Assembly: GCA_036505435.1 (NCBI GenBank)
Contig: DASXTN010000312.1
Coordinates: 1-27,519, forward strand
DNA: 27,519 nt
Direction: 5' to 3'
From: Thermoanaerobaculia bacterium
GTDB taxonomy: Bacteria; Acidobacteriota; Thermoanaerobaculia; UBA5066; Gp7-AA6
The notes beneath the pieces were generated by a model. The model saw nothing but the letters and a program-made list of their open reading frames with translations. It was not told the origin of the DNA and did no database searches. Positions 5,898 to 21,087 of the stretch are shown here, in pieces (within the stretch, counting starts at the first letter, position 1; each line of letters starts with the position of its first letter). Position numbers and translations under genes: made by a program.

Positions 5898-5974
5898 GTC
5901 AGCGAGTACGCACCAAAACTGGCAATGTTAGCCGAGGGCGCGGGGCCGAACGGATAGCTGATAGCTTCCTTTCG

Positions 5975-6598
5975 ATGCCGTTCGTCACGTTCGAGGGCGT
6001 CGAGGGCTCGGGAAAAACGACCCAGCTCAAGATGGCGGCCGCCCGCCTGAAGGAAGTGGGCCGGCCGGTGCTCGCGACCCGGGAGCCGGGAGGCACGCGG
6101 ATCGGGCGGATTCTGCGCGCGATCCTCTTGAAGAAGGCGCACCGAGAGCTCGACCCCGTGACCGAATGGCTTCTTTTCGAGGCCGACCGGCGCCAGCACG
6201 TCCGAGAAATTCTTCGTCCCGCGCTCGACCGCGGTCTCTTCGTCCTCTGCGATCGGTTCTCCGACGCGACCGAGGCCTACCAACAAGTCGGCCGCCGGCT
6301 GAACGGACGTCTCGTTCGTCGGGTCGACGAGCTCGCGCGCGACGGGCTCCTCCCCGACTTGACGCTTCTCTACGACGTCGACCCTCGCGAAGGATTGACT
6401 CGTGCGAGTCGGCGCGGGGCGCGCGGAATCGGACGGTTCGAGGAGACCGAGCTCGCGTTCCACGAAAGCGTACGGAGGGCATACCTCGCGATCGCGAAGA
6501 GAGCGCCGGACCGTGTCCGCGTTCTCGACGCCCACCGGCCGGTTCGAGCGCTCTTCCGCGAGACGTGGAGAGCGCTCGCGGAGCACTTCCAGCTTTGA
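5975..6598 (+). CDS. tmk: Thymidylate kinase (dTMP kinase)
   Basis: FVTFEGVEGSGKTTQ P-loop, TREPGG, LCDRFSDATEAYQ, PDLTLLYDVD; adjacent to holB. Confidence 0.96.
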   Translation: MPFVTFEGVEGSGKTTQLKMAAARLKEVGRPVLATREPGGTRIGRILRAILLKKAHRELDPVTEWLLFEADRRQHVREILRPALDRGLFVLCDRFSDATEAYQQVGRRLNGRLVRRVDELARDGLLPDLTLLYDVDPREGLTRASRRGARGIGRFEETELAFHESVRRAYLAIAKRAPDRVRVLDAHRPVRALFRETWRALAEHFQL

Positions 6599-7551
6599 GC
6601 GTCTTCGTTTTCCCACCGCTGCTCGAACGGCTCGCCGACCGGCCCGACCAGTTTCCGGGAGCGCTCCTCCTCCACGCAACCTCCGAGAGGCCGCTCGAAG
6701 AACGGTCGCTTTCTCTCGGGGCGTTCCTGCTCTGCCCCGGCGACGATCCCGAGCTTCGGTGCCAGTCGTGCCGACGCGCCCGCGAAAGCTTCCATCCCGA
6801 CCTGCTGACGGTCGAACCCGAGGGAGTTCAGATCCGCGTCGACCGCGTTCGGGAAGCGATCGCGTTCGGAATGGGAAAGCCCTACGAGAGCGCCCGCCGG
6901 GTCGTTCGGATTTCGCGCGCGGAGCTCCTGGGTGTCGAGGCGGCGAACGCTCTCTTGAAGTCGCTCGAGGAGCCCGGCTCGCGCCTGCACTGGATCCTGA
7001 CGACCACGCGCCCCGAAGCGCTGCTTTCGACGATCCGGTCCCGCTGTCTCGCGCTGCGCATCGCCGCTCCGACCACCCGCGACCGCGCGCGGGAGTGGCG
7101 CGAAGCGGGATTCTCGGACGCGGACGCCGCAGACCTCGCGATTTTCGCCCTCGAGACCGAAGATGCCCGCTCCGATCGGCTCGAGCAGGCGCGCCGGTTC
7201 CGTTCCGACGCTGTGGACGCCCTCCGCGCGGGGATCGTCGAGGGAAAACTGGCGGCTCTCGTGCTCCTCGCCGAGAGACTCGGGCGCGCGGAGACGGACG
7301 AGCTCCGTGTTTTCGGTGAGCTGCTCGCTGACTCCGCGCTCGTCGCTGCCGGAGTCTCCGCCGAGCTCGTGCGACATCGCGCGGTCGTGGGACCGCTCTC
7401 GGAGATCGGCCGCAGCGTCGGCGCGTCGGCTCTCCAGAAGGCCGCGCTCGCTGCCGCCGATTCTCCGCCGGACACCCGGCGGGGAAACCGGCGTCTGCAC
7501 TTCGAGAAGTTGCTCCTGGTGTTGGCCGTTGCGGCGCGGTCGCCGCGCTAG
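6595..7551 (+). CDS. holB: DNA polymerase III subunit delta'
   Basis: HPDLL, IRVDRVRE, AANALLKSLEEP, LLSTIRSRC (SRC motif); conserved tmk-holB order. Probable TTG start at 6595 overlapping the tmk stop (TTGA). The ORF-track start at 6166 is spurious. Confidence 0.88.
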   Translation: MSVFVFPPLLERLADRPDQFPGALLLHATSERPLEERSLSLGAFLLCPGDDPELRCQSCRRARESFHPDLLTVEPEGVQIRVDRVREAIAFGMGKPYESARRVVRISRAELLGVEAANALLKSLEEPGSRLHWILTTTRPEALLSTIRSRCLALRIAAPTTRDRAREWREAGFSDADAADLAIFALETEDARSDRLEQARRFRSDAVDALRAGIVEGKLAALVLLAERLGRAETDELRVFGELLADSALVAAGVSAELVRHRAVVGPLSEIGRSVGASALQKAALAAADSPPDTRRGNRRLHFEKLLLVLAVAARSPR

Positions 7552-7866: not shown

Positions 7867-8832
7867 TCAGCGTTCGAGCGTGATTTCGACCTTCTCGATC
7901 TCGCCCCGCGTGACGGTCACTTCGAGCCGCCGATCCCGGTAGCCCGGCCGGGACACGAAGAGGACGTGCCGGCCGGGCGCGACGGCGACGCCGGCGTCGG
8001 AGGCGAGCTCCGATGCCGTGCCGACAAAGCGGTCGTCCAGGTAGATCGTCGCGTCGGCTGGCCGGACGTTCAAGACGAGACGGGTGTCACCCTGCTCGGC
8101 GGCGCCCCGCCCGCGCCACTCTTCGCGCGGACGGCGCCCCTCGCGGTCTCGGTCCGCCTCCACCTCTTCGCGGTCAGGGCCGCGATCCTCCGCGTTCTCG
8201 TCGTACCGCTCCCGTGGCCGCTCGCGGTAGCGGTCGCCTCCGTAGATCTCGTCGTCGTCCGTCACCTCGACGGAGACGTCGCGGCGCTTCGCCCAGAACC
8301 GGCGAACCCCCCCGCGCGGCTCCGGGTTCTCGTAGCTGCCGTAGCGCGAAGCCCCCGGAATTTTCGGGAGCTTTTCGTCGAGGTCAATCTTTACTCCCGG
8401 CCGGGCGTCGACGGAGATCTCGCGCGATTGGTAACCCTCGAGCCGGAACTCCAGCCGGTAGCTTCCGCGGCGAAGATACAGATAATCGGGGTACCCGTCG
8501 AAGTCGTCCGCCGTGCCGATGTACTGCCCGTCCAGATAGACGCGGGCGCTCTCCGGTGAAATGTCGGTGTCGACGACCGCCCAACTTCCGGAGGGTGCGT
8601 AGCCGTAGCGGCCGTACCCGCGGTAGGACGGCCCGTAGCCGTACCAATACGGGTCATACCAGTAGGGACCGTAGCCCCAACCCCAGTACCAGGGTCGATA
8701 TCGGAATCCGAAGTACACGTGGGGACGGCGATGAGCGACGGTGACGGCGGCTCCGGCACGTACGCGTGGGCGCGCTGCGAGGGGCGCCGACGCCGCGATG
8801 GCGAGAGCGACGATCAAGATGAGCTTCTTCAT
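7867..8832 (-). CDS. Secreted protein with two PEGA domains and low-complexity regions
   Basis: Signal peptide MKKLILIVALAIAASAPLAA after SD GGAGGGAGG. PEGA-like VDTDISPESARVYLDGQYIG...LRRGSYRLEFRLEGY and LNVRPADATIYLDDRFVG...PGRHVLFVSRPGY. Start moved from 8874 to the ATG at 8832. Confidence 0.85.
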   Translation of the reverse strand: MKKLILIVALAIAASAPLAARPRVRAGAAVTVAHRRPHVYFGFRYRPWYWGWGYGPYWYDPYWYGYGPSYRGYGRYGYAPSGSWAVVDTDISPESARVYLDGQYIGTADDFDGYPDYLYLRRGSYRLEFRLEGYQSREISVDARPGVKIDLDEKLPKIPGASRYGSYENPEPRGGVRRFWAKRRDVSVEVTDDDEIYGGDRYRERPRERYDENAEDRGPDREEVEADRDREGRRPREEWRGRGAAEQGDTRLVLNVRPADATIYLDDRFVGTASELASDAGVAVAPGRHVLFVSRPGYRDRRLEVTVTRGEIEKVEITLER

Positions 8833-8858
8833 GGACACTGCCTCCCTCCATTGGACGA

Positions 8859-8873
8859 GCAAGTCCGACGCCA
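8859..8873 (-). promoter_or_regulatory. Sigma54 (-24/-12) promoter of the PEGA gene
   Basis: TGGCGTCGGACTTGC has exact GG-N10-GC spacing. The predicted +1 near 8847 falls just at the SD. Confidence 0.6.
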
Positions 8874-8979
8874 CGTTGACGGAGCCGGAAAACGCCGCGA
8901 AATTTCCTGTCTACAGTTGGTTGCGCAAGAGCGACTCTATTCCTCGGCCTCGCCGCTGACCTCCCCGAAGGCCACTGCG

Positions 8980-9963
8980 TCACCGGAAGGAATCGGGCCA
9001 GACCCCCGTCGTGCGGGGACGGACCGTCCCCGCGGGCGCGCCCGTCGCCGACCAACCGCGTGCCTTCAGGCCGTGCGCCAGCCCCTTCAGGTAGTCGTTC
9101 CGGAGAATCCGATCGAGTGCCTGACGGACTCCCGGGAGTGCCCAGCGTTCTCCGAGGGACGCCCACCAGGCCACGAGGCGATCCCGGGCCGGGGAACCGT
9201 TGGCGTAGGTGAGCGCCTGCGGCACGCCCAGGAACTCGCCCAACTCCGGGTGCTTCTCGAAAAAGATCGCGGCTGCCTCGCCGGACTTCTTCTGTCGCCG
9301 CCGGAACGACGCGAATGTGATGTCGTGGTAGTGGCGCGCGACAGCTCCGCGTCGGTAGACGATTCTCATCCCTTGCCTGGTCAAACGGTACGCGATCTCG
9401 ATGTCCTCCCACGCGGCGTGCGGGAAGGTCGTGTCGAACAGGCCGGCGCCCTCCAGGAGACGCCGCGACAGCGAGACGTTGGACGTGTAGAAGAAGTTGA
9501 ACGGCACTGAATCGGGGTTCTCGATCAACCCGTAGCCAAACTGGAGCCCGTATTCGTTGATGTGGTGGAGGAATGGCGAAACCCGCCGCTCGGAGGGCCA
9601 CGTGGTATAGCCGAGCACTGCGACGGGATGGTCGCGTCGCTCGCCGTGCGCGAGCGCGTGGACGGCGAGAAAGGCGGGCTCGGGCACGGTGTCGTCGCCG
9701 AGGAAGAGAACGATGTCACCCTGCGCCTCTCGGACCCCTCGATTTCGTGCGCGCGCGGGTCCGGAGTTCTCCTGAAAGAAACAGCGCAGCGGATAGGTCG
9801 CCGAGTACGCCCGCAGGCGGTCGGGCGTTGAGTCGCCCGACCCGTCGTCGACGACGACGACTTCGTAATCCGGCGGTTCCGTTTGTCGGCCGAGGGCGTC
9901 GAGCACCCGGAAAAGGGTGTCGGGACGACGATAGGTCGGGATGATGACCGAAAACGAGGTCAT
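8980..9963 (-). CDS. Glycosyltransferase family 2
   Basis: FSVIIPTYRR, VVVVDDGSGD, NSGPARARNRG, FLGDDTVP, WEDIEIAYRL. Confidence 0.92.
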   Translation of the reverse strand: MTSFSVIIPTYRRPDTLFRVLDALGRQTEPPDYEVVVVDDGSGDSTPDRLRAYSATYPLRCFFQENSGPARARNRGVREAQGDIVLFLGDDTVPEPAFLAVHALAHGERRDHPVAVLGYTTWPSERRVSPFLHHINEYGLQFGYGLIENPDSVPFNFFYTSNVSLSRRLLEGAGLFDTTFPHAAWEDIEIAYRLTRQGMRIVYRRGAVARHYHDITFASFRRRQKKSGEAAAIFFEKHPELGEFLGVPQALTYANGSPARDRLVAWWASLGERWALPGVRQALDRILRNDYLKGLAHGLKARGWSATGAPAGTVRPRTTGVWPDSFR

Positions 9964-11165
9964 GGGGTTCCCCCCCCGACGAAGATCTCCTCGAGTGTGG
10001 TTCGAACGAGCTCCGGCGCGCGCGCCAGAAACTCCCGGAAGAAGTCGGAGTCGAAACGCTCGTCGCCGGGATAAGTCGGCACGAGCCGCAGAGGAAACTT
10101 CGAAAAGATCTCCGCATCCGAGCGGCTGCGGCGCGATTGGACCTCACGGCGCTTCGCGGCGAGCGACTCCTGGTTCCGACGAATCCACAACAGCGCCTTC
10201 AAGTGCGCGACCGTCAGCGGGTCTTCCAACCGCACCGTCGCGCCGGTTCCGTTCGAGATGCCGAACAGCCGGCGCAGGAGTGACGGTGTCCGAGGAGGCT
10301 CGGCGTAGGGATCGCGCGCGAGCTCCGCCGCGCCGGGATTGCGCGTCGCGAGCATCTCCGAGATCCGCATCAGGAACGCGGCGAGCACCGAAGGCATGAA
10401 GGCCGCGAAGTGGTCCCGATCGAAGTTCTTGTACGCGGTGGCGAAAGCGTTCTTCTCGAACAGGTAACCGCGCGAGTAGATGCCGAGCGCCGCGCCGGTC
10501 GCGCCACCGCGATGCCGGGCGATCGCTCGCGGCTCCGCGACGATGCGCCGCCCGAAGATCCACTGACGCCAGCCAAAGTCGACGTCCTCGAGGTAGGCGA
10601 AGTAGTCATCGTCGAAGCCGCCGGACGAAATGAATTCGCCGCGCCGCACGACCATGAGTCCCCCGCAGGCGAAAAGGCGCTCCTGACCGGGAAACACGTC
10701 CGGCAGCGCAGCGAGCAGGCGCCCGACCTCGCTCTGGAAGGCGTGCCCGTCGAAAGTGAGAAACCCATCGAAGAAGTCGTTGCGCTCGCCGGTCGAATCC
10801 GTCAACCGGCCGGCGACCGCGACGACGTCCGGATCGGAGCGCTCGAGAGCCTCCGAGAGAAGGCCCGGTGCCTCGGGCTCCACCACCGCGTCGTCGTTGA
10901 CGAAGAGAAGGAAACGACCGCGCGCGGCCTCCGCGCCGAGACGGCAACCTGCGGCGAAGCCGACGTTTCGGGACGCAGTGATCCGGCGGATCGTCGGATG
11001 TCGTCGCAAGAGCTCGACGATCGAGAGACCCGACGCATTGTCCACCACGAGGATCTCTCCGATCAGCCGGCCGCGGCAGGCAGTCTCGAGAGCTGCGAGC
11101 GTCTCGAAGAGGCGCTCCGAGCCGCGGTGGTGGACGACGACGATCGAAACGTCCGGAGTCTTCAT
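9960..11165 (-). CDS. Glycosyltransferase family 2 (WbbL-like)
   Basis: VSIVVV, ILVVDNAS, NVGFAAGCRLG, FVNDDA, GGFDDDYFAYLEDVDFGWR. Start moved to the ATG at 11165 (MKTPDVS). Its stop overlaps the next ATG (ATGA). Confidence 0.9.
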   Translation of the reverse strand: MKTPDVSIVVVHHRGSERLFETLAALETACRGRLIGEILVVDNASGLSIVELLRRHPTIRRITASRNVGFAAGCRLGAEAARGRFLLFVNDDAVVEPEAPGLLSEALERSDPDVVAVAGRLTDSTGERNDFFDGFLTFDGHAFQSEVGRLLAALPDVFPGQERLFACGGLMVVRRGEFISSGGFDDDYFAYLEDVDFGWRQWIFGRRIVAEPRAIARHRGGATGAALGIYSRGYLFEKNAFATAYKNFDRDHFAAFMPSVLAAFLMRISEMLATRNPGAAELARDPYAEPPRTPSLLRRLFGISNGTGATVRLEDPLTVAHLKALLWIRRNQESLAAKRREVQSRRSRSDAEIFSKFPLRLVPTYPGDERFDSDFFREFLARAPELVRTTLEEIFVGGGTP

Positions 11166-11202
11166 CGCCGGCGGGCAGAGTAAACCACGATGCCTCGGAC
11201 CG

Positions 11203-12456
11203 TCAGCGAGAGGGAGCCCGCCGCGTGAGCCGCCGCCAGAGCCGAGTCTCACGAACGGCCGGGTAGAGAAGTCGGTTCTCGTCCACCTGGGCGCGGGCAC
11301 ACCAGGAGACGAGCGGTTTCGCCACCCCTTCCCAAGTCCGGCGGGATGCGAACGCGCGCGCAGCCCGCGCCGCCTCGGCGTGCCGCTCGGGAGCGAGGCC
11401 GGCCAGAATTGCCCCGGCCAGACTTCGCGGCGAACTCTCGACCCGCCAGCCCGCGCCGGCTTCTGCGAGCTCGCGCGCGAGCGCGCCGCCGGCAACTGAA
11501 ACGGACGGGACTCCTCCCCACGCGGCGTCGAGCAACCGCGTTCGGTAGGCGAGATCCGTTTCCAGTCCCTCCGACGAGATGGAGACGATCAGATCGGAGG
11601 CGGCATACAGGTCTTCGCGCGCGGCATAGGGAATCCACGGCGAGAAGTGGATCGAGCGGCCCTCCGGATCGAGCTCGCGCGCCTTGACGCGCGCTTCTCC
11701 GTACAGGCGCTGCGGCGTCGTTTCGGGGTTCGGACTTTCGAGGAACAGCAAATGAGCGTCCGGCTGCTCCCGAAGGACCAACGACCAAGCATCCAGGAGC
11801 AGCGCGGGATCGTTCCAGTCGTAGATTCCTCCGAACAGGATGACCGGCCCCATTTCGGAAACTCCGGTGGCTCGCCGACCGGCGATGCGATCGCCTCGCG
11901 CGGGCCGCGCGGGCACGCCGAACGGAACGATCGCCAGGATCTCCGCCAGCGTCGGATCTTCCGGGAAGTTCGCGGCGCCGATTCGGCCAGCGGAGAAGAG
12001 CGCTCCGGCATAGAAGAGACGCTGCTCGGGCGAGGCGCAGAGGAACAAATCGGAACGTGCGAGGGCGAGTCGGAGCGTCGCGAGGTCGTGACGGGCGGTC
12101 TCTCCCCCGAGCGTTTCCGCGTAATGGAGATTCTCGATCGGAAAGGGATCGTAGAGGTCCACTGCGACCGGAACGTCCGGCGCCTGATGAAACCAGAAGT
12201 TCGCCGCATGCCCAGAGACGACGGCGGCACTCGCGCCCGCCGCGGCGGCCGCGAGATCGCCCTCCGGGGCGGCGTGCACGACCGGAACGTCCCCCGCCAC
12301 CTCGGTCGCCTCGGCCGGATCGTTCGGAACGAGGAGCCGCGCGTCGAGCTCGGCGGCGATCGCACGCGCGAGCTCGAGGGCGCGGATTCCCATCCCCGCC
12401 ATCCGCGGCCGGATTGGCTCCGGAGCGAGCACCGCGACGAAAGGGCGCGAAGACAT
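11203..12456 (-). CDS. Glycosyltransferase, GT-B fold (family 4-like)
   Basis: N-terminal MAGMGIRALELA, VILFGGIYDWNDP, YAASDLIVS, ETDLAYRTRLLDAAWGGVP, RTWEGVAKPL. Confidence 0.82.
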   Translation of the reverse strand: MSSRPFVAVLAPEPIRPRMAGMGIRALELARAIAAELDARLLVPNDPAEATEVAGDVPVVHAAPEGDLAAAAAGASAAVVSGHAANFWFHQAPDVPVAVDLYDPFPIENLHYAETLGGETARHDLATLRLALARSDLFLCASPEQRLFYAGALFSAGRIGAANFPEDPTLAEILAIVPFGVPARPARGDRIAGRRATGVSEMGPVILFGGIYDWNDPALLLDAWSLVLREQPDAHLLFLESPNPETTPQRLYGEARVKARELDPEGRSIHFSPWIPYAAREDLYAASDLIVSISSEGLETDLAYRTRLLDAAWGGVPSVSVAGGALARELAEAGAGWRVESSPRSLAGAILAGLAPERHAEAARAARAFASRRTWEGVAKPLVSWCARAQVDENRLLYPAVRETRLWRRLTRRAPSR

Positions 12457-12461
12457 GGGAT

Positions 12462-14366
12462 CTAGCTGCGCCCGCGAATGCGGTCGAGGAGGAGATGCAG
12501 CTTCCAGGTCCGCGAGTCGTAGATCTGGTTCAGGATCGCGGTCAGCCGGTCGATTTCGCCGTAGGTTTCGGCGAGCTGCCGATCGTACTCCTCGTTCTTC
12601 GCGAAGAGCTCGGCGAGGCGATCGTGGACGAGCTCGTTCTCGGCGGAGAGACGCGCCCTCTCGGTCTGGAGCTGGACGTTGCGCAGCTCGGACTCGGCGA
12701 GCCGCGTCTCCAGAGTCAGAGTGGCCGCGACCTGCGCCTGCGCGCGCGCCAGAGACTCCGCAAGGTGCTGATGATTCTCGCGCTGGTAGCGGAGCTCCCC
12801 CTGCGAGATCGTGTCACGTTCGTACCAGAACGCGATCTGCGAACGCATCCGATCGAGCGTGCGCCCCAGCCCTTCCTCGGTGCGCCGAGACGCATATCGT
12901 TGGTAGATCTCACTGCGTGCGCGTTGGAAGGAGGCGGACCCCGCCGCCGCGTGCGAGGAGCCCGCGCTGCTCTCGAAGGCGCGGTACTCGCACGTGACGG
13001 CCCGGACGTGCCGGAACGACGTCTCGAAGGACGCCCGGATCAAGAAGTCCCAGTCTTCCGAATACTCGAGCGCCTCGTCGAAGCCGCCGAGCTTCCGATA
13101 GAGAGCGCGCGGGAGGAGCAACGTGTGGAGCGGGATGTAGTTGGCGAGCAGCAGATAGTCGGGGTCGAAATCGAGCGAGTACTGCAACGCCCGCGCTCCC
13201 GCCTTCCAGTCCTCCCCCTCGCGCTGGTAGACGACCGTCACGGCGTCGGAGTAGACGACCGGCTCTGGACCCGACTGGTGGGCCGCCACCAGCCGCTCGA
13301 AGTGGTCGGGAAAGCAGAGGTCGTCGTCGTCGAGAAACGCGACGAGCTCCTCCGTCGCGGATTCCACGCCGCGGTTCGCGGCCGCCGACCGTCCGTGCCG
13401 CTCGGGGAGCTCCTCGAGCGAAATCTCGAAGACATCGCGGAAGGGCTCCACGACGTTGCAGACCGAAGCGCCGCCGTCGTTCACGACGACCACGTGTCGG
13501 GGACGTGCCGTTTGCGCGCGAAGGCTCGCGAGAGCCTCCGCGAGAAACACCGGTCGGTTGCGGGTTCGGACGACGACAGCGACCGGTGCGGGTCCGCGGC
13601 TGCCGTCCCGAACGACCGCCGGACCGATCGCCCGCCGGAACTCTTCGAGCGAGCGGGTCGACGCCTCCGCCCACGAAAGGACGCAGAACGCCTCGACAGG
13701 ACCGGTCCCCGGTAGCGTCAACCGTCGGTAAGCGTTCAGACCCTGGAGAGCGCCCGCGTAGTCCCGCACCGACTGCTGCGATTGGTAAGCGCGGAGCGCT
13801 TGCTGTTTGCGCGAGGCAACCCGCGAGATGTCCACCAGCACGTTCGGTAGGAACGGCTGCGAGATCTCGTAAAAGCCGAGCCGTAGGAATCGGTAACGAT
13901 CGTGATCGGGATCGCCCGGTCGCGAAGCGGAGACCGTCCGGTAGAGAGCTTCGGAGAGCGCGCGGTGGTCGGGGTGGATCTCCGCCGGCGACGGGCACAG
14001 CACGAGATCGGGCTCGAAGTCGGAGAGTTGTTCCGCGAGAACCCGACCGAGCTCTTCTCCGTTCGACACGAGCGACCGGTCCGAGAGTCCTGCGAAGACC
14101 GGGGACTCCAGGCAGAGCGTTGCGGCGGCGCGGCGCGATTCGTCGCGGCGGCGCTGCCCGTAAGCTTCGGAGCCTTCCTCCTCCGCTCCCTCCTGCGCGG
14201 TGCCGTCGGTCGCGATCCAGACTCGAATCGTGCTCCCCCGCTCCGCGCACAGGGCGAGGAGACCTCCTGCCCCGAGCACCTCGTCGTCGGGATGGGCGGC
14301 GAGGACGAGAACCCGTTCGGCGGTCAGGTCGCTCGCCTCGTAAGGGATGAGCTCGTCTTCTTTCAC
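12462..14366 (-). CDS. PIG-L/LmbE-family deacetylase - GT2 - coiled-coil fusion protein
   Basis: VLVLAAHPDDEVLG and IHPDHR (PIG-L metal motifs). VVVVNDGG, GRSAAANRG, FLDDDD, GGFDEALEYSEDWDF (GT2). About 100 aa of heptad-rich C-terminus ending SRTWKL. GTG start. Confidence 0.9.
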   Translation of the reverse strand: MKEDELIPYEASDLTAERVLVLAAHPDDEVLGAGGLLALCAERGSTIRVWIATDGTAQEGAEEEGSEAYGQRRRDESRRAAATLCLESPVFAGLSDRSLVSNGEELGRVLAEQLSDFEPDLVLCPSPAEIHPDHRALSEALYRTVSASRPGDPDHDRYRFLRLGFYEISQPFLPNVLVDISRVASRKQQALRAYQSQQSVRDYAGALQGLNAYRRLTLPGTGPVEAFCVLSWAEASTRSLEEFRRAIGPAVVRDGSRGPAPVAVVVRTRNRPVFLAEALASLRAQTARPRHVVVVNDGGASVCNVVEPFRDVFEISLEELPERHGRSAAANRGVESATEELVAFLDDDDLCFPDHFERLVAAHQSGPEPVVYSDAVTVVYQREGEDWKAGARALQYSLDFDPDYLLLANYIPLHTLLLPRALYRKLGGFDEALEYSEDWDFLIRASFETSFRHVRAVTCEYRAFESSAGSSHAAAGSASFQRARSEIYQRYASRRTEEGLGRTLDRMRSQIAFWYERDTISQGELRYQRENHQHLAESLARAQAQVAATLTLETRLAESELRNVQLQTERARLSAENELVHDRLAELFAKNEEYDRQLAETYGEIDRLTAILNQIYDSRTWKLHLLLDRIRGRS

Positions 14367-14427: not shown

Positions 14428-15375
14428 CTACACCAAGTCATACAGCGAAGGAACCAGGTGCGCTCTTTGCGCGAAACGGTTCGCGGCTTCGTCGTCGAAG
14501 GTACGCACGATGATCGGAAAGCCCGCCTCACGCCGCTCTCCGCGAAGCCGAAGGAAGAGGTCCGCCGCCGGGCCGCCGGGTGTCTCCCAGAAGATGAGCT
14601 TCGAGGCGCCGAGCCGTCGCGCTTCCCCCGCCGCAGCGCCGAGCAGGATCGGCAGATCGCCTCCGTCGGCCTCACCGCAGAGCAAATCGGCGACCAGGGC
14701 GGCATCGCCGGCCACCGATAGGACGACCCATCCCGTCGCGCGACTTCCGCTCTCTCTCCAGACCATGCGGTACCACCTCGTCGGCCGCGCATGAAAGCGC
14801 CAATTCGCGCGAGCGCGATCACGCACGGGCGCATGGGTCAGGAACGTCTCCGCCACGTCCCACAATGGATCGAAACTCTCTCCGACCGAGTCTCCGGCGA
14901 CCGCGTCGGAGGGCGGCGCGGGAAAGGCATCGCAAGGCACGAGGATCTCGCGAATCGAGAAGAGGGTCCGCGAGCCGACGATCTTCTCGCTCACTTCGAG
15001 AGCGCGAGGGTTGGGAAAGCCGAAGCAGAAGGGCACGCCCCGAGCGCCTACTGCCTCGTAGAACGCCTCGGTCATCGAGCGGTAGATCCCGTGTCTGCCC
15101 CCAAGGCGGCGGACGGAGGGATCGGTCGCGACGTCGCCGACCGAGTAGCAGAGCGTCGGCTGGCCGTCGAGGAGCATCCGCGTCCCCCACCCCGAGTAGT
15201 TGCCGACGATCTCACCGTCGACGAGTGCGACGATGCCGAACCATCCGTCCGGGTTGCGCTCGAACTTCCAGGCCCACTCTTCCTCCGGCATCTCCTTCGC
15301 GAAGACGCGGGCGAAGAGGCGCCGGATGCCGGCTGCGTCGGCGGCGGTCGCCTCCCGAACGTGAAAGGCGGTCAC
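14428..15375 (-). CDS. GNAT-family N-acyltransferase
   Basis: FHVREATAADAAGIRRLFARVF, WKFERNPDG, VGDVATDPSVRRLG (motif A), FGFPN. GTG start at 15375 overlaps the upstream TGA (GTGA). The ORF-track start at 16164 is spurious. Confidence 0.85.
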   Translation of the reverse strand: MTAFHVREATAADAAGIRRLFARVFAKEMPEEEWAWKFERNPDGWFGIVALVDGEIVGNYSGWGTRMLLDGQPTLCYSVGDVATDPSVRRLGGRHGIYRSMTEAFYEAVGARGVPFCFGFPNPRALEVSEKIVGSRTLFSIREILVPCDAFPAPPSDAVAGDSVGESFDPLWDVAETFLTHAPVRDRARANWRFHARPTRWYRMVWRESGSRATGWVVLSVAGDAALVADLLCGEADGGDLPILLGAAAGEARRLGASKLIFWETPGGPAADLFLRLRGERREAGFPIIVRTFDDEAANRFAQRAHLVPSLYDLV

Positions 15376-16427
15376 CGCTCTTCTTTTTCCCAAACAAAGG
15401 TTTCGAGCGGACGTCCGTCGGTCGGGCGAAACGACCGCAGGTAGAGCGAGCCCGGCGGAAGGCGCATCGCGATCTCCTCGGGAAGGACGAAGCCTTCGTC
15501 GAGCGGCGATCCCGCGAACGGAAGGACGGAGGGATTTGTCGAGATCGCGGCCCACGCTCCGGAGCGCGCCGCGAGCCGAGGCTTCGCGATCCTGGGAACT
15601 ACAGTCGGTCGGCTGACCCTCGCGGCTCGCTCGAGGAGAGCCCGGCCGAAACGGCCATAGCGACGGCGCCAGTAGAGACGTCGCGATCGGAACCGGCGCT
15701 CCGGCGTCTCGGGACTCGCGGTGGCGCTCGCTCCCCAGAGGTGGTGTATCCGCGCCCTCGGAACGAACCGCAGCGCGAGACCACACCCGCGGACGCGATC
15801 TTCCCACTCCGTCTCCTCGAACTCGAAGGGAAACCGCTCGTCGAAGCGACCGACGCGATCGAACACCTCGCGACGGACGGCGAGGACGGCGCCGGAGAGT
15901 TGGCGCGTCGTCCCCCCGCGGTCCCAGAGCCGGAGCATTTCGCGCGCGAACGACGCGAATCGCTTCTCGGACCGCGAAGGCCACCGGCCGATGGAGAGCT
16001 GTGCGAGATCGGAGAGGAAGCTCGGCGACCAGCCGGCGGGAAGCCGGACATGCTCTTCGGCGTCCCAGAACGCGAGCGGGGCGGCCGCTCCGACCGACGG
16101 ATCGTCGATCGCCTCGAGCAGCGTCCGGACCGCATCGGGATGGAACACCACGTCCGCGTTGCAAACCAGGATCCGGAAGGACCGGGCGCGAGCGAGGCCG
16201 GCGTTGACGCCGCCCGCGTACCCGCGATTCTCCGCGAGCGGAAGGAAGAGATCGGCGCCCCCCCGTTCGAGCGCGTGCGTCTCCGCGAGACCCGAGCCGC
16301 AGTCGACAAGGACGATCTCCCCGACGATTCCTTCGGCGCGAAACGCCCTCCGGAGCGACGCGACGCAGTCGATCGCTTCGCGCGCGCTCAAGTGGCTGAC
16401 GACGACCGCGGAGACCTCGGGCAGCAC
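15372..16427 (-). CDS. Glycosyltransferase family 2 (WbbL-like)
   Basis: VSAVVVSH, IVLVDCGS, ENRGYAGGVNAG, VCNADV, VGRFDERF...EETEW. GTG start at 16427, 1 nt after the upstream TAG. Confidence 0.87.
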   Translation of the reverse strand: MLPEVSAVVVSHLSAREAIDCVASLRRAFRAEGIVGEIVLVDCGSGLAETHALERGGADLFLPLAENRGYAGGVNAGLARARSFRILVCNADVVFHPDAVRTLLEAIDDPSVGAAAPLAFWDAEEHVRLPAGWSPSFLSDLAQLSIGRWPSRSEKRFASFAREMLRLWDRGGTTRQLSGAVLAVRREVFDRVGRFDERFPFEFEETEWEDRVRGCGLALRFVPRARIHHLWGASATASPETPERRFRSRRLYWRRRYGRFGRALLERAARVSRPTVVPRIAKPRLAARSGAWAAISTNPSVLPFAGSPLDEGFVLPEEIAMRLPPGSLYLRSFRPTDGRPLETFVWEKEER

Positions 16428-16428
16428 G

Positions 16429-17442
16429 CTACGCTCGCTCGCCGACCGCGCGGACGAAGGCCGCTTCCAGCCGCTCGGCGACCCGCGTGGCATCGAACCG
16501 TCCGGCGACGGAAGGGCCGTCACGGCGCGCGCGGGCGCGGGCGGTGTCCGACAACAGGTCCGGCAGCCGATCGGCGAGCGCGTTCGGATCTCCGTCGGCG
16601 AAGTACCAGGCGGCCTCCCCGGCGAACTCGCGGTGCCCGGGCGTGTCCGAGAGGAGACACGGCAGCCCACAGGCGAGCGCCTCGAGTGCCGGAAGACCGA
16701 ATCCCTCTTCCGGGCGCGAAGGCCCGATGAAAAGGTCCGACGCGCGGTACGCGTACGGCATCCGGTCGGGCGAAAGGCGGTGATGGTACTCGTCGGTGAG
16801 ACCCCACGACTTCTCCTCGTCACCGGCCGGTAACGGCGAGATGCGGCACAGCCGGAACCGTCCGCCGCGACGGCGCCACGACGCGAGGCCGGCGAACGCG
16901 ATCGAGATGCCCTTCACGTCCGCTTCGTACGGTCCGACGAGGAGAACGACCGGTGGATCCGACGGCGGGCGTTCGGGGCCGGGCGAGAAGCCGTCGGTCT
17001 CGAACGCCTGCCCGACGTTCGTCGCCGGCCCGAACCCCTTCTCTTCGAGCCGCCGGGCGAGTATCTCCGACACCGTGAGCTTTCGTGTCGGTGCGCGGTA
17101 CGCGGCCTCGATCGAGGCTCGCGACGACGCGTAGAAGCTGAAGTCCCCTTCGTATCCCTGGCAGAGATGGAAGACGGGTCCGCTCGCTGCCTCCATCGCG
17201 GGAGCGACCGTCGTCCAGAACGTCGCCACCCGTACGTCGGCGCGAGCGAGCTCGGTCGACTCTCGAAACGCCGACCGCTCGAAACGAGAACGTGCCAGTG
17301 AAAACCAGTCGGGCCGCCCCTCGGGCGAGATGACGGCGACGCGATGGCCCCGCCGCGCGAGCGCCTCCGCCTGGAGAAGGGCTACCTTGACGCCGCCGGA
17401 AAGCGCTGTGGACTCGAGCAAGTACGCGATTCGGAGACTCAT
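16429..17442 (-). CDS. Glycosyltransferase family 4 (WsaF-like motifs)
   Basis: SGGVKVAL...LARRGHRV, DVRVATFWTT, FHLCQGYE, EEGFGLPALEALACG (EX7E). Confidence 0.9.
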   Translation of the reverse strand: MSLRIAYLLESTALSGGVKVALLQAEALARRGHRVAVISPEGRPDWFSLARSRFERSAFRESTELARADVRVATFWTTVAPAMEAASGPVFHLCQGYEGDFSFYASSRASIEAAYRAPTRKLTVSEILARRLEEKGFGPATNVGQAFETDGFSPGPERPPSDPPVVLLVGPYEADVKGISIAFAGLASWRRRGGRFRLCRISPLPAGDEEKSWGLTDEYHHRLSPDRMPYAYRASDLFIGPSRPEEGFGLPALEALACGLPCLLSDTPGHREFAGEAAWYFADGDPNALADRLPDLLSDTARARARRDGPSVAGRFDATRVAERLEAAFVRAVGERA

Positions 17443-17458
17443 GGCCGACCTTGAACCA

Positions 17459-18589
17459 TTACTTCGCCCTTCCCACCGCCACCCACTGGTAAGTCAACAG
17501 GCTCTCTCGATCGAGCTCGGGCCATCCATCCACCAGCCGGAGGAACTCGTCGGTGTCCGGTGCGGCGGCTCCCGGCAGCGATTCGATCGCGGTCATCCAC
17601 CAGCCCGCTTCTTGGAGCCACTCCTCGAGCGACCTCCGAGTGAACCATCGGAGGTGACCGGCATCGGCAAGGCCGGCAGGAACCGGGTCGAATCGACCGC
17701 GGAGGAGATCACGGACGATCGAGAGATGGCCGACGTTCGGAACGCTCGCGACGAGCGTCGCCCCGGAGAGAGCGAGCTGCCGAGCGAGAACGAGGGCTCG
17801 AATCGGGTCTTCGAGATGTTCGAGCACGTCTGCAAAGAGGAACGCGTCGAAGCGCTCACCGGCGTCGGCGAGTTCGGAGAGTCGCGCGATGGCGTCGCCT
17901 TCGAGCACTCGGTCGAGACGGTCTCGCGCGAGCTCGGCGGCGCCCGGTTCCCTCTCGATTCCAGTGACCGAAAGATCGGGATGGGAGCGGCAGAGAGCAG
18001 CGGATGCGACACCCGAGCTGCAGCCGACGTCGAGGAGCCGACGGATCCCGGGAGGGAAATGGCGGATCACCTCGACTCGCTCCGCTCCGCAGTCGTCGAA
18101 CGCGACGGCCGCGAACTGCGGCGGGAAATCACCCGGAGTCCCCGGCGAAAGAAGCCGTCCGAGGTAAGCGGCGATCGACTCGTCGTCGCGCGGCGGAAAG
18201 TCGGAGACCGTAAAAGCGAGAGCGGGGCTGTCCTGCGGACGGGGTGGGGTGCTCTCTTCGGGGGAAAAGGTCGCGCGCTGGAACTCGGACAGTGTATGGA
18301 CGCCCGGGAGGGCGTCCGGTGAGCGGACTGAGGCGAAAGAGACGCATCCTGCGGCGAGCGGCAGAATCTCCTCGCCCGGGAGAGGCAGCGCGATCTCGTC
18401 GCGCACGACGATCCAGCTCTCCCCGGAGGAGAACGTTGCCGCCGCCGGGCGGTCCGGAAAGAGCTCTGCGAGCTGGCGCATGGGAAACCGTCTCTTCCAT
18501 CGCTGACGCGACAGAAGGCGGAGATAGTCGGGCGCGCTCCCTCCCTCCTCCCGCGAGAGGAACCCGATTCTTCCGACGGCTCGGTTCAA
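17459..18589 (-). CDS. Class I SAM-dependent methyltransferase with an uncharacterised N-terminal domain
   Basis: LLDVGCSSG (motif I), VTGIERE, FDAFLFADVLEHLEDP, LVASVPN. TTG start overlaps the wzt stop (TTGA). Confidence 0.85.
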   Translation of the reverse strand: MNRAVGRIGFLSREEGGSAPDYLRLLSRQRWKRRFPMRQLAELFPDRPAAATFSSGESWIVVRDEIALPLPGEEILPLAAGCVSFASVRSPDALPGVHTLSEFQRATFSPEESTPPRPQDSPALAFTVSDFPPRDDESIAAYLGRLLSPGTPGDFPPQFAAVAFDDCGAERVEVIRHFPPGIRRLLDVGCSSGVASAALCRSHPDLSVTGIEREPGAAELARDRLDRVLEGDAIARLSELADAGERFDAFLFADVLEHLEDPIRALVLARQLALSGATLVASVPNVGHLSIVRDLLRGRFDPVPAGLADAGHLRWFTRRSLEEWLQEAGWWMTAIESLPGAAAPDTDEFLRLVDGWPELDRESLLTYQWVAVGRAK

Positions 18590-19842
18590 GAAGATGCGGC
18601 CGAGGAGCCGGCGGTCATGGGAAGGGGCTCCTCGGCGCTTCCTTCGGTGACCGTCCAGAAGTGATGCGGCTTCACGAGCCCCACGGTGTAGTCGGGTGCC
18701 GCCACGGTGAATCCGGGCCGCAGAACCTTCAAATCGTGGAGGTGGAGGGCCGTCTCGTCCCCCAGAAACGCGTAGAGCCGGAACTCACCTTGCGCGATCG
18801 GCAGGTGTGGAAATACGAGGCGCAGGCGGTAGCTGTGGCGTCCCGTGAGCGGAGCGAAGGGCTCGGCTCGGGTATCCACCGCGAAGGCTTGCACCCCGTC
18901 TTCGCGGTCGGCGCCGACGCGCACGTGAAACGCGAGGCTCGGGTCGTCAGTCTCGAACGCGAGATCCACCGCGACGGTCTCGCCGGCTCCGAACTCGGCG
19001 CGGGCAAACCCGGACCCGTCGTGAACGACGACTTCCGTGAACCGCGCCGGACGCCGCCCTTCCGTCGCTGAAACCGTCTCCGCTTTTTCCGTCGACGAGC
19101 GCTCTCGCTCCTTCTGCTGGAGGAACGACTCGTATGCCCGCACGACGGTCAGGGCCGGACCAGCCGCGGCGACTTCCCCCTGCTTCAACCAGATTGCCCG
19201 GTCGCAAAGGAGCGCGACGTAGTACAGGGCATGCGAACAGAAGAGGAGGGTCCCGCCCCGCTTCTGAAACTCGGTGATCCGATCGATCGACTTCTTCTGA
19301 AAGTAACCGTCTCCGACCGAGAGCGCCTCGTCCACGATCAGAACGTCCGCGCTCGCATGCGTCGCGACGGCGAACGCGAGCCGCAGCGCCATGCCGGAGG
19401 AGTAGGTTCGGACCGGTCGGTCGAAGAAGTCACCGAGCTCCGCGAAGTCCTGGATCTCCGGCAGACGTTCTCGAATCTCCGTGCCCGAGAGGCCGAGCAG
19501 CGCCGCGTTCATCCGCGCGTTCTCGCGTCCGGTGAACTCGGGATGGAATCCCATTCCGAGCTCGAGGATCGAAGCCACGACGCCGTGACGCTCGACAGTC
19601 CCGGAGGTCGGCTGGGTCGTCCCGGCGATGATCTTCAGGAGCGTGGACTTGCCCGCTCCGTTCTCCCCGATGAGACCCAGAGCGCGCCCGGCCGGCAAAT
19701 CGAGCGAGACGTTCCTCAGTGCGTGGAAAGCGCGATGTTGCGGCGAGCGGAAGAGGAGCTCCCGAAGGCGGTCGAACGGCCGGTCGTACAGCCGGTAAAC
19801 CTTCGAGACCGACTCCGCACGCACCGCCAGGCGGCCCGTCAC
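18586..19842 (-). CDS. wzt: Polysaccharide ABC exporter ATP-binding subunit with C-terminal Wzt-C carbohydrate-binding domain
   Basis: GLIGENGAGKSTLL, LGMGFHPEFTGREN, YSSGMALRLAFAVA, LIVDEALSVGD, plus a ~140-aa C-terminal beta domain. GTG start at 19842 after SD GGAGGGAG. Confidence 0.93.
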   Translation of the reverse strand: MTGRLAVRAESVSKVYRLYDRPFDRLRELLFRSPQHRAFHALRNVSLDLPAGRALGLIGENGAGKSTLLKIIAGTTQPTSGTVERHGVVASILELGMGFHPEFTGRENARMNAALLGLSGTEIRERLPEIQDFAELGDFFDRPVRTYSSGMALRLAFAVATHASADVLIVDEALSVGDGYFQKKSIDRITEFQKRGGTLLFCSHALYYVALLCDRAIWLKQGEVAAAGPALTVVRAYESFLQQKERERSSTEKAETVSATEGRRPARFTEVVVHDGSGFARAEFGAGETVAVDLAFETDDPSLAFHVRVGADREDGVQAFAVDTRAEPFAPLTGRHSYRLRLVFPHLPIAQGEFRLYAFLGDETALHLHDLKVLRPGFTVAAPDYTVGLVKPHHFWTVTEGSAEEPLPMTAGSSAASS

Positions 19843-19861
19843 AGGCTCTCCCTCCGACGCG

Positions 19862-20992
19862 TCACCGTCCGAGCGCGAATTCGCATCGCCGGCAGAGGAA
19901 GTCGTCGGGCGCCTCCTCGACGCCATAGGTCCACCTCCGCAGCCGGGCCATCGCGTCGCCGCCCAGCACTTCGGCGACCGTTTGAGTTTTCAGGTCGCCG
20001 ATCGTGAGCTTCTCGTAGTAATCCTGGCAGCACAGCACCGCCTTTGCGGTCGCGGTGACGTGGAGGTGTTCGAAGGGGCGCGAGCCCATGAGCTCGCAGC
20101 CGCGCAGCTCCTTCACGGGCGGTGGCTCCGGCACGAATGTCCCGCTCGCCGGCCGACTGCGTATCCGGAACGACTTGACCTCCCAGCCCTTCGGTTCGAA
20201 GCGTTCGCGAATCTCGCGAACGTCTCTCCGGTGCGCTTCGTCGTTGTCGCCGAGGACGACGATCGCCGTTTCCTCCGCGATCTGACGGGCATGCAGAGCG
20301 TCGATGTTGGCGAGAACTCGCGTGAGGTCGCGGGTGCCGTGCATCCGCTCGTAGCGCGCGGGATCGAGCGTGGGGAGGTTCACTCCGATGTACCGGAATC
20401 GGCCCGCGTGAGCGAGCCGGTCCGCTCGGTCGGAACCGAAGTGAGACGCGTTGGTGAGCAACGAGACCGGCAGGCCGCGCGCGAACAGGGCAAGACAGCG
20501 CTCCTCGAACAGGGGGTCGATCGTCGGCTCGTTGTAATTCGACAGGAACACGACGACTCCTCGCGCGCCGATCGCAACCACCTGGTCGGCGATCGACTCG
20601 AAGAGCTCCTGGCTCATGACCTCCCTCTCGCGCGGATCGACCGACACCGGGCAGAACGGGCAACGGTGGTTGCAGCTCGTGCACGTTTCGAGCGAGACGA
20701 ACAGCAGGTGCGACCGGCGCGTCTCGGCGTCGAGGTCCTCGACCAAGAACCGGGCGGCGCGGAGGTGCTCGAGAACTTCCGGCTCGGCGTGGGCGGGAAG
20801 ACCCTGCCGGATGCGCGCGAGCGCTTCGAAGGCGGGGCCGTCCTTACCGAGCGACTCGCCCGTCGTCGGGTTATACAAAACGGAGCCCCGGTCGTGGAGG
20901 TAGGGCGAAACCGTCCCCCTGTCCACGAGCGTCGACGCGGTCTCTCCGCCCTGTACCGCGATCGGACTCATCGATCCTTGCGTCTCCTTCAT
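19862..20992 (-). CDS. Radical SAM protein with twitch/SPASM-type C-terminus and an RRE-like N-terminal extension
   Basis: CNHRCPFC (CX3CX2C), YNEPTIDP, LLTNAS, and C-terminal CELM...LCCQDY...IGDL...CRRC. Start uncertain (ATG 20992 or ATG 20971). Confidence 0.9.
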   Translation of the reverse strand: MKETQGSMSPIAVQGGETASTLVDRGTVSPYLHDRGSVLYNPTTGESLGKDGPAFEALARIRQGLPAHAEPEVLEHLRAARFLVEDLDAETRRSHLLFVSLETCTSCNHRCPFCPVSVDPREREVMSQELFESIADQVVAIGARGVVVFLSNYNEPTIDPLFEERCLALFARGLPVSLLTNASHFGSDRADRLAHAGRFRYIGVNLPTLDPARYERMHGTRDLTRVLANIDALHARQIAEETAIVVLGDNDEAHRRDVREIRERFEPKGWEVKSFRIRSRPASGTFVPEPPPVKELRGCELMGSRPFEHLHVTATAKAVLCCQDYYEKLTIGDLKTQTVAEVLGGDAMARLRRWTYGVEEAPDDFLCRRCEFALGR

Positions 20993-21087
20993 CGATCCGA
21001 TTCGCAAGCGGCCATTCTACTGGGGTTCTACGCGTCGGCCGCCAGGAACGTCGTCCAGCTCCGGCGTCTCACGCCTTCCTTCTCATT

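Follow-up and report, generated by a model that had tools for sequence, protein, structure and literature searches.

A PIG-L deacetylase-GT2-coiled-coil protein from a surface-glycan operon of Thermoanaerobaculia, a candidate chain terminator and molecular ruler

Within the window (that is, the whole 27,519-nucleotide stretch of DNA that was analysed), one gene of a conserved operon encodes, in a single open frame, a PIG-L-type deacetylase, a GT2 glycosyltransferase, a coiled coil and a conserved tail (Table 1). Because a glycosyltransferase, a deacetylase and a helical stalk sit together in an operon for surface-sugar export, a novel way of capping and measuring sugar chains is possible. According to the reading that we prefer, this protein (hereafter the target) would be a soluble cytoplasmic three-part enzyme of an ABC-transporter-dependent surface-glycan pathway of Thermoanaerobaculia, serving there as terminator and ruler, and we consider this reading to come close to an even chance while still falling a little short of it. 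The analysis establishes the composition of domains, the integrity of their catalytic motifs, the content and conservation of the operon, gene fusions in relatives and a coil whose length varies in heptad steps; the donor and the acceptor, the order of the steps, termination, a role as ruler and reading by Wzt are inferred.

Table 1. Coordinates of the target gene, its parts and the neighbouring genes in the window.
Feature	Position	Strand	Remarks
Target ORF, single open frame	12462..14366	-	634 aa, GTG start; PIG-L deacetylase, GT2, coiled coil and conserved tail
PIG-L/LmbE zinc de-N-acetylase core	13941..14309	-	aa 20-142; fold reaches ~aa 240
GT2 (GT-A type) glycosyltransferase domain	12957..13589	-	aa ~260-470
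Heptad coiled-coil stalk	12516..12806	-	aa ~521-617; ~14 nm if one continuous coil
Length-variable coil middle	12654..12794	-	aa 525-571; 47 residues in the target, orthologues ranging from 27 to 76
Conserved coil-end motif IYxSRTWKLHxxxxRLRGR	12465..12524	-	aa 615-634
Radical SAM/SPASM enzyme	19862..21007	-	conserved cluster member
Wzt-type ABC ATPase, C-terminal Wzt_C-like module	18586..19926	-	no adjoining Wzm permease
SAM methyltransferase, adjoins Wzt	17459..18589	-	Pfam Methyltransf_23, E 6e-15; rival candidate for making the cap
GT4 glycosyltransferase	16429..17442	-	
GT2_a, GT2 glycosyltransferase	15372..16430	-	start approximate
Eis-like double-GNAT acyltransferase, directly upstream of target	14428..15369	-	Pfam Acetyltransf_9, E 4.7e-12
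GT-B (Glyco_trans_1_4, GT1_4) glycosyltransferase	11203..12456	-	start 5 nt past target stop codon
GT2_b	9960..11180	-	start approximate; 43% identical to P0170 over residues 742-1132 of the latter
GT2_c, EpsD-like GT2	8980..9963	-	

Catalytic domains of the target protein

Pfam PF02585 recognises the PIG-L domain over its core with 99.9 bits, the cut-off being 28.2 (E 2e-28). The translation carries the motifs AHPDDE (aa 24-29) and HPDH (aa 131-134), and 30 homologues (65-84% identity) show no variation at their residues H25, D27, D28, H131, D133 and H134. In the AlphaFold2 monomer, whose mean pLDDT is 63, this domain mostly reaches 75-92, and Foldseek matches it to diacetylchitobiose deacetylase (Dac), TT1542, BC1534 and BshB, with E values from 2.8e-13 to 2e-10 and TM scores, by target, of 0.62-0.74. 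The GT2 domain, for its part, matches Pfam PF00535 (Glycos_transf_2; aa 264-389, E 4.6e-19, 69.4 bits against a cut-off of 23.3) and carries FLDDDD (aa 343-348) and EDWD (aa 437-440), with DDDD (aa 346-349) and EDWD invariant in 30 homologues. Both enzymes had been described as intact in the first-pass annotation, and the conservation of their motifs bears this out.

Among PDB sequences, the GT2 domain is matched best by the single-addition GT2 9jma (E 8.5e-18), and single-addition enzymes are its closest solved relatives. The same kind of search with the target returned PIG-L and GT2 entries only, with no homology to the catalytic domains of WbdD or WbbB and no GT99. No transmembrane segment was detected in the protein, whose hydrophobic 19-mers have a maximum of 1.09, none of them reaching 1.6. 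By its sequence, then, the GT2 domain appears to be of the soluble single-addition type and not a membrane synthase.

What could the deacetylase act on? The characterised PIG-L enzymes MshB, BshB, PIG-L, diacetylchitobiose deacetylase and teicoplanin Orf2* all act on GlcNAc that is held in a glycosidic bond and is itself unsubstituted. A common logic is found in MshA/MshB/MshD, BshA/BshB and the PIG-A/PIG-L enzymes of GPI synthesis, where GlcNAc is added, a PIG-L enzyme deacetylates it and the resulting amine is used, and the target shares the PIG-L catalytic motifs with these systems. Those enzymes, however, are separate and small, and act on small molecules or PI, whereas the deacetylase of the target is part of one polypeptide with a coil and a GT2 (instead of a GT4), is encoded in a polysaccharide operon and misses the equivalog cut-offs: BshB1 (TIGR04001) is its best NCBIfam match (E 6.4e-25), with 88.2 bits against the required 182.5.

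The operon, its relatives and the link to export

The target is encoded in an 11-gene operon conserved across Thermoanaerobaculia. Besides a Wzt ATPase bearing a sugar-binding Wzt_C module, this operon encodes a radical SAM enzyme, a methyltransferase and an Eis-like GNAT, and its GT modules number six. The order rSAM, Wzt, MT, GT4, GT2, GNAT, target, GT1_4, GT2, GT2 is kept in at least nine species-level genomes; none of the biosynthetic proteins of the operon has transmembrane segments, and no initiating phosphoglycosyl transferase is encoded in it. A homologue of the target is near-core and single-copy in the class (106 of the 151 sampled genomes, 47 of the 67 genera), full-length homologues being 64-84% identical, and a protein search yields 1,275 representatives at E <= 1e-30. 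Homologues of 363-455 aa that look like GT2 alone were considered as a natural unfused form, a candidate dropped after the one examined (L088) turned out to have a frameshifted or miscalled PIG-L region. One orthologue (L009) is truncated at its N-terminus beside a transposase and a HerA-like gene, and is therefore uninformative on synteny.

Relatives also differ in how the modules are joined. In a distant orthologous cluster, L005, the target orthologue has a coil of ~230 residues followed by a fused GT2_b orthologue, and the GT1_4 orthologue is fused to that of GT2_c; long relatives have the order PIG-L, GT2, coil, GT2, GT2. The methyltransferase is conserved in L005 and in the context of P0128 (a related cluster, which in addition encodes an acyltransferase of the Lip_A_acyltrans family and a deacetylase of family CE4), and is fused to GT4 in the relative L004.

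Directly upstream of the target, the Eis-like GNAT is syntenic at every locus with enough flank. Its AlphaFold2 model (pLDDT 79.5) is matched by Foldseek to Eis-family double GNATs (E 1e-13 to 4e-18, TM 0.6-0.7), with which it shares the two-lobed GNAT fold, although it differs from them in having 314 aa, no Eis third domain and only 11-17% identity. Characterised members of the Eis family acylate amines of amino-sugar glycosides, and the neighbour could be the enzyme that re-acylates an amine freed by the target.

Regarding export, Wzt_C is matched in nine of nine Wzt orthologues (best E 6.4e-9), the window's own copy scoring 25 bits, under the cut-off of 30.4. A Wzm permease was not found in the Thermoanaerobaculia cluster; L005 has one, together with a Wzt that carries Wzt_C. 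The best Wzt_C match lies on the same contig and within 15 kb of the target homologue in about 48 of the 106 class genomes that have one, a hand count that takes in one unpublished genome (G004), with no claim made on that genome alone. A Holophagales locus has a target homologue with no Wzt within 10 kb, and in one family of the class (f14) the homologue is not near Wzt. The carbohydrate-binding module of Wzt has been tied to a "terminal moiety-CBM" mechanism (PMC10629545); an extended coiled-coil protein, on whose distal end the terminator sits, has been called the marker (PMC11231755).

The coiled coil and its conserved end

A coil of ~100 aa at ~12515-12840 had been proposed earlier, and two approaches agree on it: a simple heptad score places it at aa 521-621 (nt about 12504-12806), and the AlphaFold2 monomer has helices at 497-549, 555-617 and 619-630, of which the first two cover 497-617. 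Within the operon, a long heptad coil is found in the target protein only, and a coil is present in 79 of the 92 PIG-L-bearing representatives examined. Coiled coils are also known in polymerases that lack terminators, such as WbbM.

The length of this coil varies by up to 49 residues among orthologues that are otherwise 65-80% identical, and the variation is confined to the middle segment. Out of 16 distinct lengths of that segment, 15 fall into three residue classes modulo 7 (i.e., three step-7 series), a clustering that random length sets reproduce in 3e-5 of trials. The monomer model breaks the helix at 550-554 and, in longer variants, Gly or Pro occurs at ~30-50% of the variable segment, so that a folded-back hairpin arm is possible, and such an arm, if real, would abolish spacing by the coil. 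The commonest variant (27 residues) has neither Gly nor Pro in the segment, and a hairpin is unsupported for it by these positions; the long variants are still candidates. A complex prediction with two copies of the coil (aa 520-634) and GT2_b scored 0.00, which counts neither for nor against binding.

The tail of the target, YDSRTWKLHLLLDRIRGRS, which the translation gives just as it was first reported, has S618, W621, K622, H624, L625, R631, G632 and R633 invariant in 30 homologues, and the coil-end motif is kept in relatives of ~40% identity. It aligns with SxSW[RK]xTxPLR, which in longer relatives is internal, lying between the coil and further GT modules. Over 18-residue windows of aa 609-634, the Eisenberg helical hydrophobic moment is only 0.09-0.23 and the mean hydrophobicity about -0.4 to +0.1. 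These values, together with the internal position of the motif in longer relatives, do not bear out the initial description of the tail as an amphipathic, WbdD-like membrane helix, and anchoring at the membrane is thereby left without an explanation. A homologue search with aa 565-634 returned orthologues alone and is therefore uninformative on the tail in unrelated enzymes. The motif profile matched generic coiled coils only in the PDB, with no solved structure bearing the motif, and in the window's own genome the target was its sole match; a weak match on another contig (C187) was dismissed, as it is antisense to a methyltransferase gene.

How does this build compare with characterised terminators? 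In WbdD (E. coli O9a/O8), a methyltransferase, with or without a kinase, is followed by a trimeric coiled coil, and the C-terminal region serves both for membrane binding and for the recruitment of WbdA. The target resembles it in having catalytic domains N-terminal to a long coil and a separate putative polymerase, and the pathways would be alike in depending on an ABC transporter whose Wzt module reads the cap (PMC3482155; PMC11231755). They differ in their catalytic chemistry and in the tail, of ~20 residues and low moment in the target and ~250 residues in the C-terminal domain of WbdD. As regards the WbdD-like build put forward by the first-pass annotation, a parallel to the coiled-coil terminators is supported by the catalytic modules ahead of a long coil, by the operon's Wzt with its Wzt_C-type module, by the lack of a second long coil in the operon and by the L005 fusion, in which modifier, coil and GT follow one another as in WbbB; an amphipathic membrane tail is not supported. 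WbbB, from Klebsiella pneumoniae O12 and Raoultella terrigena, combines a GT99 beta-Kdo terminator, a coiled coil and two polymerase GT modules. The likeness lies in an N-terminal modifying GT, a coiled coil and then polymerase GT, a sugar cap (predicted for the target) and a Wzt with a binding module (PMC11231755), and its order of modifier, coil and GT(s) is shared by the L005 orthologue and many long relatives. In contrast with WbbB, the target consists of a GT2 and a PIG-L domain, with no sequence relation to GT99, and at the distal end its GT is accompanied by a second enzyme, the deacetylase; the polymerase-like GTs of the window are encoded by genes of their own, and the role of the target is predicted. 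A third case is ORF7(O4) of K. pneumoniae O4, a Kdo transferase of family GT137 that carries its coiled coil at the C-terminus. Like it, the target would be a stand-alone terminating GT with a C-terminal coil, the polymerase modules belonging to separate polypeptides (PMC11231755); ORF7(O4), however, is of another GT family and fold, lacks a deacetylase and has a TPR-like bundle ahead of the coil. The resemblance of the target to these terminators is one of architecture and not of descent, and a layout like that of WbbB or WbdD is supported by its having the sole long coil in the operon, by the L005 fusion and by coil length varying in the middle only.

Proposed role, alternatives and implications

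As a terminator and ruler, the target would work as follows. The GT2 domain would add one N-acetyl-hexosamine onto the non-reducing end of a lipid-linked glycan, and the fused PIG-L domain would then strip the N-acetyl group from the added sugar. The freed amine might stay or, about equally likely, be re-acylated by the Eis-like GNAT. The coil, of ~95-110 residues, would keep PIG-L and GT2 apart from the polymerising GT2_b, GT1_4 and GT2_c, which would assemble at its C-terminal end, so that editing would be limited to chains whose length lets them reach the distal modules. The edited end would halt extension and be recognised by the sugar-binding module of Wzt for export. A free-amine cap, in particular, is doubtful, since the conserved adjacent GNAT could re-acylate the amine, and the methyltransferase adjoining Wzt could make the cap instead.

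The latter is part of the strongest alternative, which we regard as unlikely, although a serious contender: GT2 and PIG-L (together with the GNAT) would place an amino sugar, free or with its N-acyl group swapped, in every repeat unit or in an adaptor that does not repeat, the coil would do no more than oligomerise and scaffold the GT complex, and the export cap would be a methyl group from that methyltransferase. The position of its gene next to Wzt, its retention both in L005 and around P0128 and its fusion to GT4 in L004 agree with this, as do the near-core, single-copy distribution of the target and the possible hairpin geometry of the coil. The target, GT1_4, GT2_b and GT2_c are fused in varying combinations, which points to a single multi-enzyme complex and not to a separate terminator. 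Nevertheless, the methyltransferase has no coil, unlike all the characterised methyl-type terminators in PMC11231755, there is no obvious reason for 100-230 coil residues between one polymerase module and the others, and a pure scaffold leaves the heptad-step variation in coil length unexplained. Markedly less probable is the editing of a primer, comparable to that of GPI anchors, in which PIG-L would deacetylate a lipid-linked reducing-end GlcNAc or glycolipid anchor at the membrane and GT2 would extend it, with coil and tail bringing the enzyme to the membrane machinery. The namesake PIG-L does act on lipid-linked GlcNAc-PI at the cytoplasmic membrane face, the acyltransferase and CE4 deacetylase of the P0128 context hint at a glycolipid, and the operon has no initiating phosphoglycosyl transferase; but catalytic domains at the far end of a long stalk suit a substrate at the membrane surface poorly (provided that the tail marks the end at the membrane or complex), the amphipathicity of the tail is slight and the protein has no transmembrane segments. 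A small-molecule pathway, unrelated to polysaccharide, in which the GT, the PIG-L deacetylase and the GNAT would make a mycothiol- or bacillithiol-like amino-sugar conjugate, is hardly credible: the order of activities mirrors MshA/MshB/MshD and BshB1 is the best match of the domain, but at less than half of its cut-off score, the cluster encodes no ligase (MshC or BshC), polysaccharide GT modules surround the target next to Wzt and are joined to it in relatives, and a coiled coil would have no role there.

Were any of these alternatives true, the target would be an ordinary tailoring enzyme on an unusual scaffold. In the literature covered, glycan chains assembled in dependence on an ABC transporter are known to be ended by methyl, methyl-phosphate, Kdo and pyruvate-type groups, and full-text searches found no description of a deacetylase-type terminator; LmbE-type candidates may have been listed earlier. 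If the target is a terminator and ruler, an edited amino sugar (de-N-acetylated or N-acyl-swapped) would be a new cap chemistry, written by a two-enzyme terminator that first adds the sugar and then edits it. We put forward only tentatively, as an improbable extension, that PIG-L-GT2-coiled-coil proteins may form a widespread terminator class, in which a HexNAc would be added, deacetylated and N-acyl-swapped with the Eis-like GNAT to give an edited amino-sugar cap for which Wzt has a dedicated binding module, and in which the heptad-step coil would tune glycan length between species. The natural variants of the coil, from 27 to 76 residues among similar orthologues, would offer a ready test of the ruler outside the Enterobacteriaceae.

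Domain architecture and coil

The 634-codon frame, open on the minus strand from a GTG start, encodes every motif listed for it in the first-pass annotation, namely AHPDDE (aa 24-29), HPDH (131-134), FLDDDD (343-348), EDWD (437-440) and the tail YDSRTWKLHLLLDRIRGRS. The accompanying observation of two catalytic domains followed by a coil is confirmed by Pfam, which finds PIG-L (aa 20-142, E 2e-28) followed by Glycos_transf_2 (aa 264-389, E 4.6e-19), each well over its cut-off, by 30 aligned homologues (65-84% identity), none of which departs from the target in a catalytic residue of either domain, by a simple heptad score, which places the coil at aa 521-621, and by an AlphaFold2 monomer (mean pLDDT 63, shallow alignment) with helices at 497-549, 555-617 and 619-630. 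The protein is a bona fide PIG-L and GT2 family member, and in Foldseek the PIG-L part of the model resembles diacetylchitobiose deacetylase, TT1542 and BshB structures.

The tail had been called amphipathic, which is poorly founded given a helical hydrophobic moment of 0.09-0.23 in the last 18-residue windows. That low moment and the polar character of its most conserved residues in the alignment (S618, W621, K622, H624 and R631-G632-R633) speak against a WbdD-like membrane helix, and no hydrophobic segment was found in the whole protein. The tail motif, IYxSRTWKLH...RLRGR, is the C-terminus of the short forms of the family and aligns with SxSW[RK]xTxPLR, which is internal in long relatives, where it links the coil to the GT module that follows; it is better regarded as a conserved junction motif at the end of the coil. 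A comparison of the motif profile with the PDB returned no solved structure containing it.

The segment between the anchors GELRY and AENE comprises 27-76 residues in 92 orthologues, and is followed by a fixed 43 residues from AENE to the tail motif and by a tail of 16-18. Fifteen of the 16 distinct segment lengths fall in three residue classes modulo 7 (offsets 0, +3 and +6) and form step-7 series, a pattern matched by random length sets in 3e-5 of trials, although the sequences are related and this figure overstates their independence. With the textbook rise of 0.148 nm per residue, the coil, if continuous, would span about 11-18 nm across the orthologues and about 14 nm in the target. The commonest segment variant (27 residues) has neither Gly nor Pro, whereas in longer variants such residues occur at 30-50% of the segment, and in the monomer model of the target the helix breaks at 550-554; for the longer variants, a folded-back hairpin is a possible geometry besides an extended coil.

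Gene neighbourhood and export

Judged by the source names of the homologues, the host is an uncultured member of the Thermoanaerobaculia (Acidobacteriota). The gene lies inside a co-oriented block whose order is repeated in at least nine species-level genomes. No transmembrane segment was found in any biosynthetic protein of the operon, and a heptad scan of the operon detected a long coil in the target alone.

Coordinates of the operon genes (window positions) and of related features
Feature	Position	Strand or context
Giant PKD-domain protein	21143-25840	co-oriented block
Radical SAM/SPASM	19862-21007	-
281-aa ORF	19839-20684	other frame
Wzt/TagH-type ABC ATPase with C-terminal extension	18586-19926	-
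Methyltransferase (MT)	17459-18589	-
GT4	16429-17442	co-oriented block
GT2_a	15372-~16430	co-oriented block
GNAT	14428-~15369	-
Target (PIG-L, GT2, coil)	12462-14366	-
Tail motif	12465-12524	-
GT-B (GT1_4, Glyco_trans_1_4)	11203-12456	co-oriented block
GT2_b	9960-~11180	co-oriented block
GT2_c	8980-9963	co-oriented block
PEGA protein	7867-8874	co-oriented block
Internal motif SxSW[RK]xTxPLR	P0148:591-603, P0221:610-622 and others	long forms
Wzm-Wzt pair	L002:52-2111	contig C167, same genome
Fusion loci	L005:197-3604 and 5065-7293; L004:5717-7936 (MT+GT4); L088:2391-4868	related clusters
Truncated orthologue	L009:1-9600	related MAG

The extension of the cluster's Wzt matches Wzt_C only weakly, its 25 bits falling short of the 30.4 cut-off, and all nine of its orthologues match this profile (best E 6.4e-9). 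Neither in the window nor in at least nine related genomes does the cluster contain a Wzm permease. The window's genome has a separate, canonical Wzm-Wzt pair on contig C167, its Wzt with a strong Wzt_C match (E 1.8e-27), and the permease of this pair, or another on contig C249, may serve the cluster Wzt.

The radical SAM/SPASM gene is conserved in the glycan cluster, even in the distant orthologous cluster L005 (47% identity), with sugar tailoring or peptide modification as candidate roles; the ORF overlapping it matches no family and probably represents a shadow frame due to high GC. Among the operon proteins, the methyltransferase is the least conserved (44-51% identity versus 60-80% for the others), and its first ~170 residues have no family match. 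In a related MAG (L009), some 50-70 residues are missing from the N-terminus of the orthologue, whose neighbours are a DDE transposase and a HerA-like ATPase; the operon's upstream half is on another contig, as the result of an insertion or of a break in the assembly.

Distribution and lineage-specific fusions

An exhaustive protein search retrieved 1,275 representatives at E <= 1e-30. The N-terminal HPDD motif is present in at least 92 of the best 150, and 79 of these 92 have a heptad segment of at least 35 residues; 44 are short, target-like forms (560-700 aa) and 48 are long, those examined with Pfam reading PIG-L, GT2, coil and one or two further GT2 domains. Since a full-length homologue, almost always single-copy, occurs in 106 of 151 sampled genomes of the Thermoanaerobaculia (47 of 67 genera; the sample takes in one unpublished genome, G004, and every claim rests on others too), the gene is close to core in this class, unlike a serotype gene that varies between strains. 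In about 48 of these 106 genomes (hand count), the contig that carries the homologue also has the best Wzt_C match, no more than 15 kb away; the homologue is not near Wzt in one family (f14) and in a Holophagales locus (L014).

L005 holds orthologues of nearly every window operon gene, plus Wzm and a Wzt with Wzt_C. Its target orthologue (36% identity over aa 8-610) continues into a ~230-residue coil and then the GT2_b orthologue (43% identity), the same order (modifier, coil, GT) as in WbbB, and a second fusion there joins GT1_4 with GT2_c. In a third lineage, the homologue P0128 (41% identity) is accompanied by GT1_4, GT2, methyltransferases, a GNAT of the Acetyltransf_9 family and a Wzt with Wzt_C. 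This cluster also encodes an acyltransferase of the Lip_A_acyltrans family and a CE4 polysaccharide deacetylase, a hint that an acylated glycolipid may carry the glycan of that lineage or be linked to it. One enzyme set appears as target+GT2_b, GT1_4+GT2_c, MT+GT4 and GT1_4+GT2_b (an 825-aa single gene call), and fusion in different combinations across lineages suggests that the operon modules work as one complex.

Proposed chain termination and its alternatives

In the known systems described in the literature, a coiled coil carries at its distal end the enzyme that caps the non-reducing end, and the cap is recognised by a Wzt binding module; an extended coiled-coil protein has been named "a characteristic marker" of the strategy (PMC11231755, PMC10629545, PMC3482155). 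The target resembles WbbB, WbdD and ORF7(O4) in layout and lies outside their families, because its catalytic domains are unrelated. Of the WbdD-like build proposed initially, the layout is supported and the membrane helix is not.

A terminator and ruler function is plausible, and the best reading, which we favour tentatively at slightly under an even chance, is that the target edits and ends chains. Its GT2 domain would add a HexNAc to the chain end and its PIG-L domain would then strip the acetyl group, the amine being left free or re-acylated by the GNAT. By separating this pair from polymerising GTs clustered at its C-terminal end, the coil would restrict editing, termination and transfer to Wzt to long chains.

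The free amine, part of the original proposal, is doubtful, because an Eis-like GNAT is conserved directly upstream of the target; it folds as a double GNAT (pLDDT 79.5, Foldseek E down to 4e-18), two-lobed like Eis but, at 314 aa, without its third domain. An N-acyl swap is about as likely as the amine staying free.

All known PIG-L enzymes act on a GlcNAc bound via its anomeric carbon and bearing no further sugar. This preference agrees with a substrate that has just been added to the chain end, but does not separate a residue that is terminal for good from one that is so for a moment. It is rather unlikely, yet to be weighed, that the modification is made in the chain or on an adaptor, with the coil as scaffold and a methyl group as cap: the methyltransferase, which adjoins Wzt and is fused to GT4 in L004, could make the cap instead, but has no coil. 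Editing of a lipid-linked primer, as in GPI synthesis, is improbable, and a mycothiol-like small-molecule pathway is scarcely credible.

Our literature search, which left the 2019 survey by Mann et al. outside it, found no paper describing a deacetylase-type terminator. Whether or not its bearers end chains, the PIG-L-GT2-coil arrangement is a real, widespread and uncharacterised architecture.
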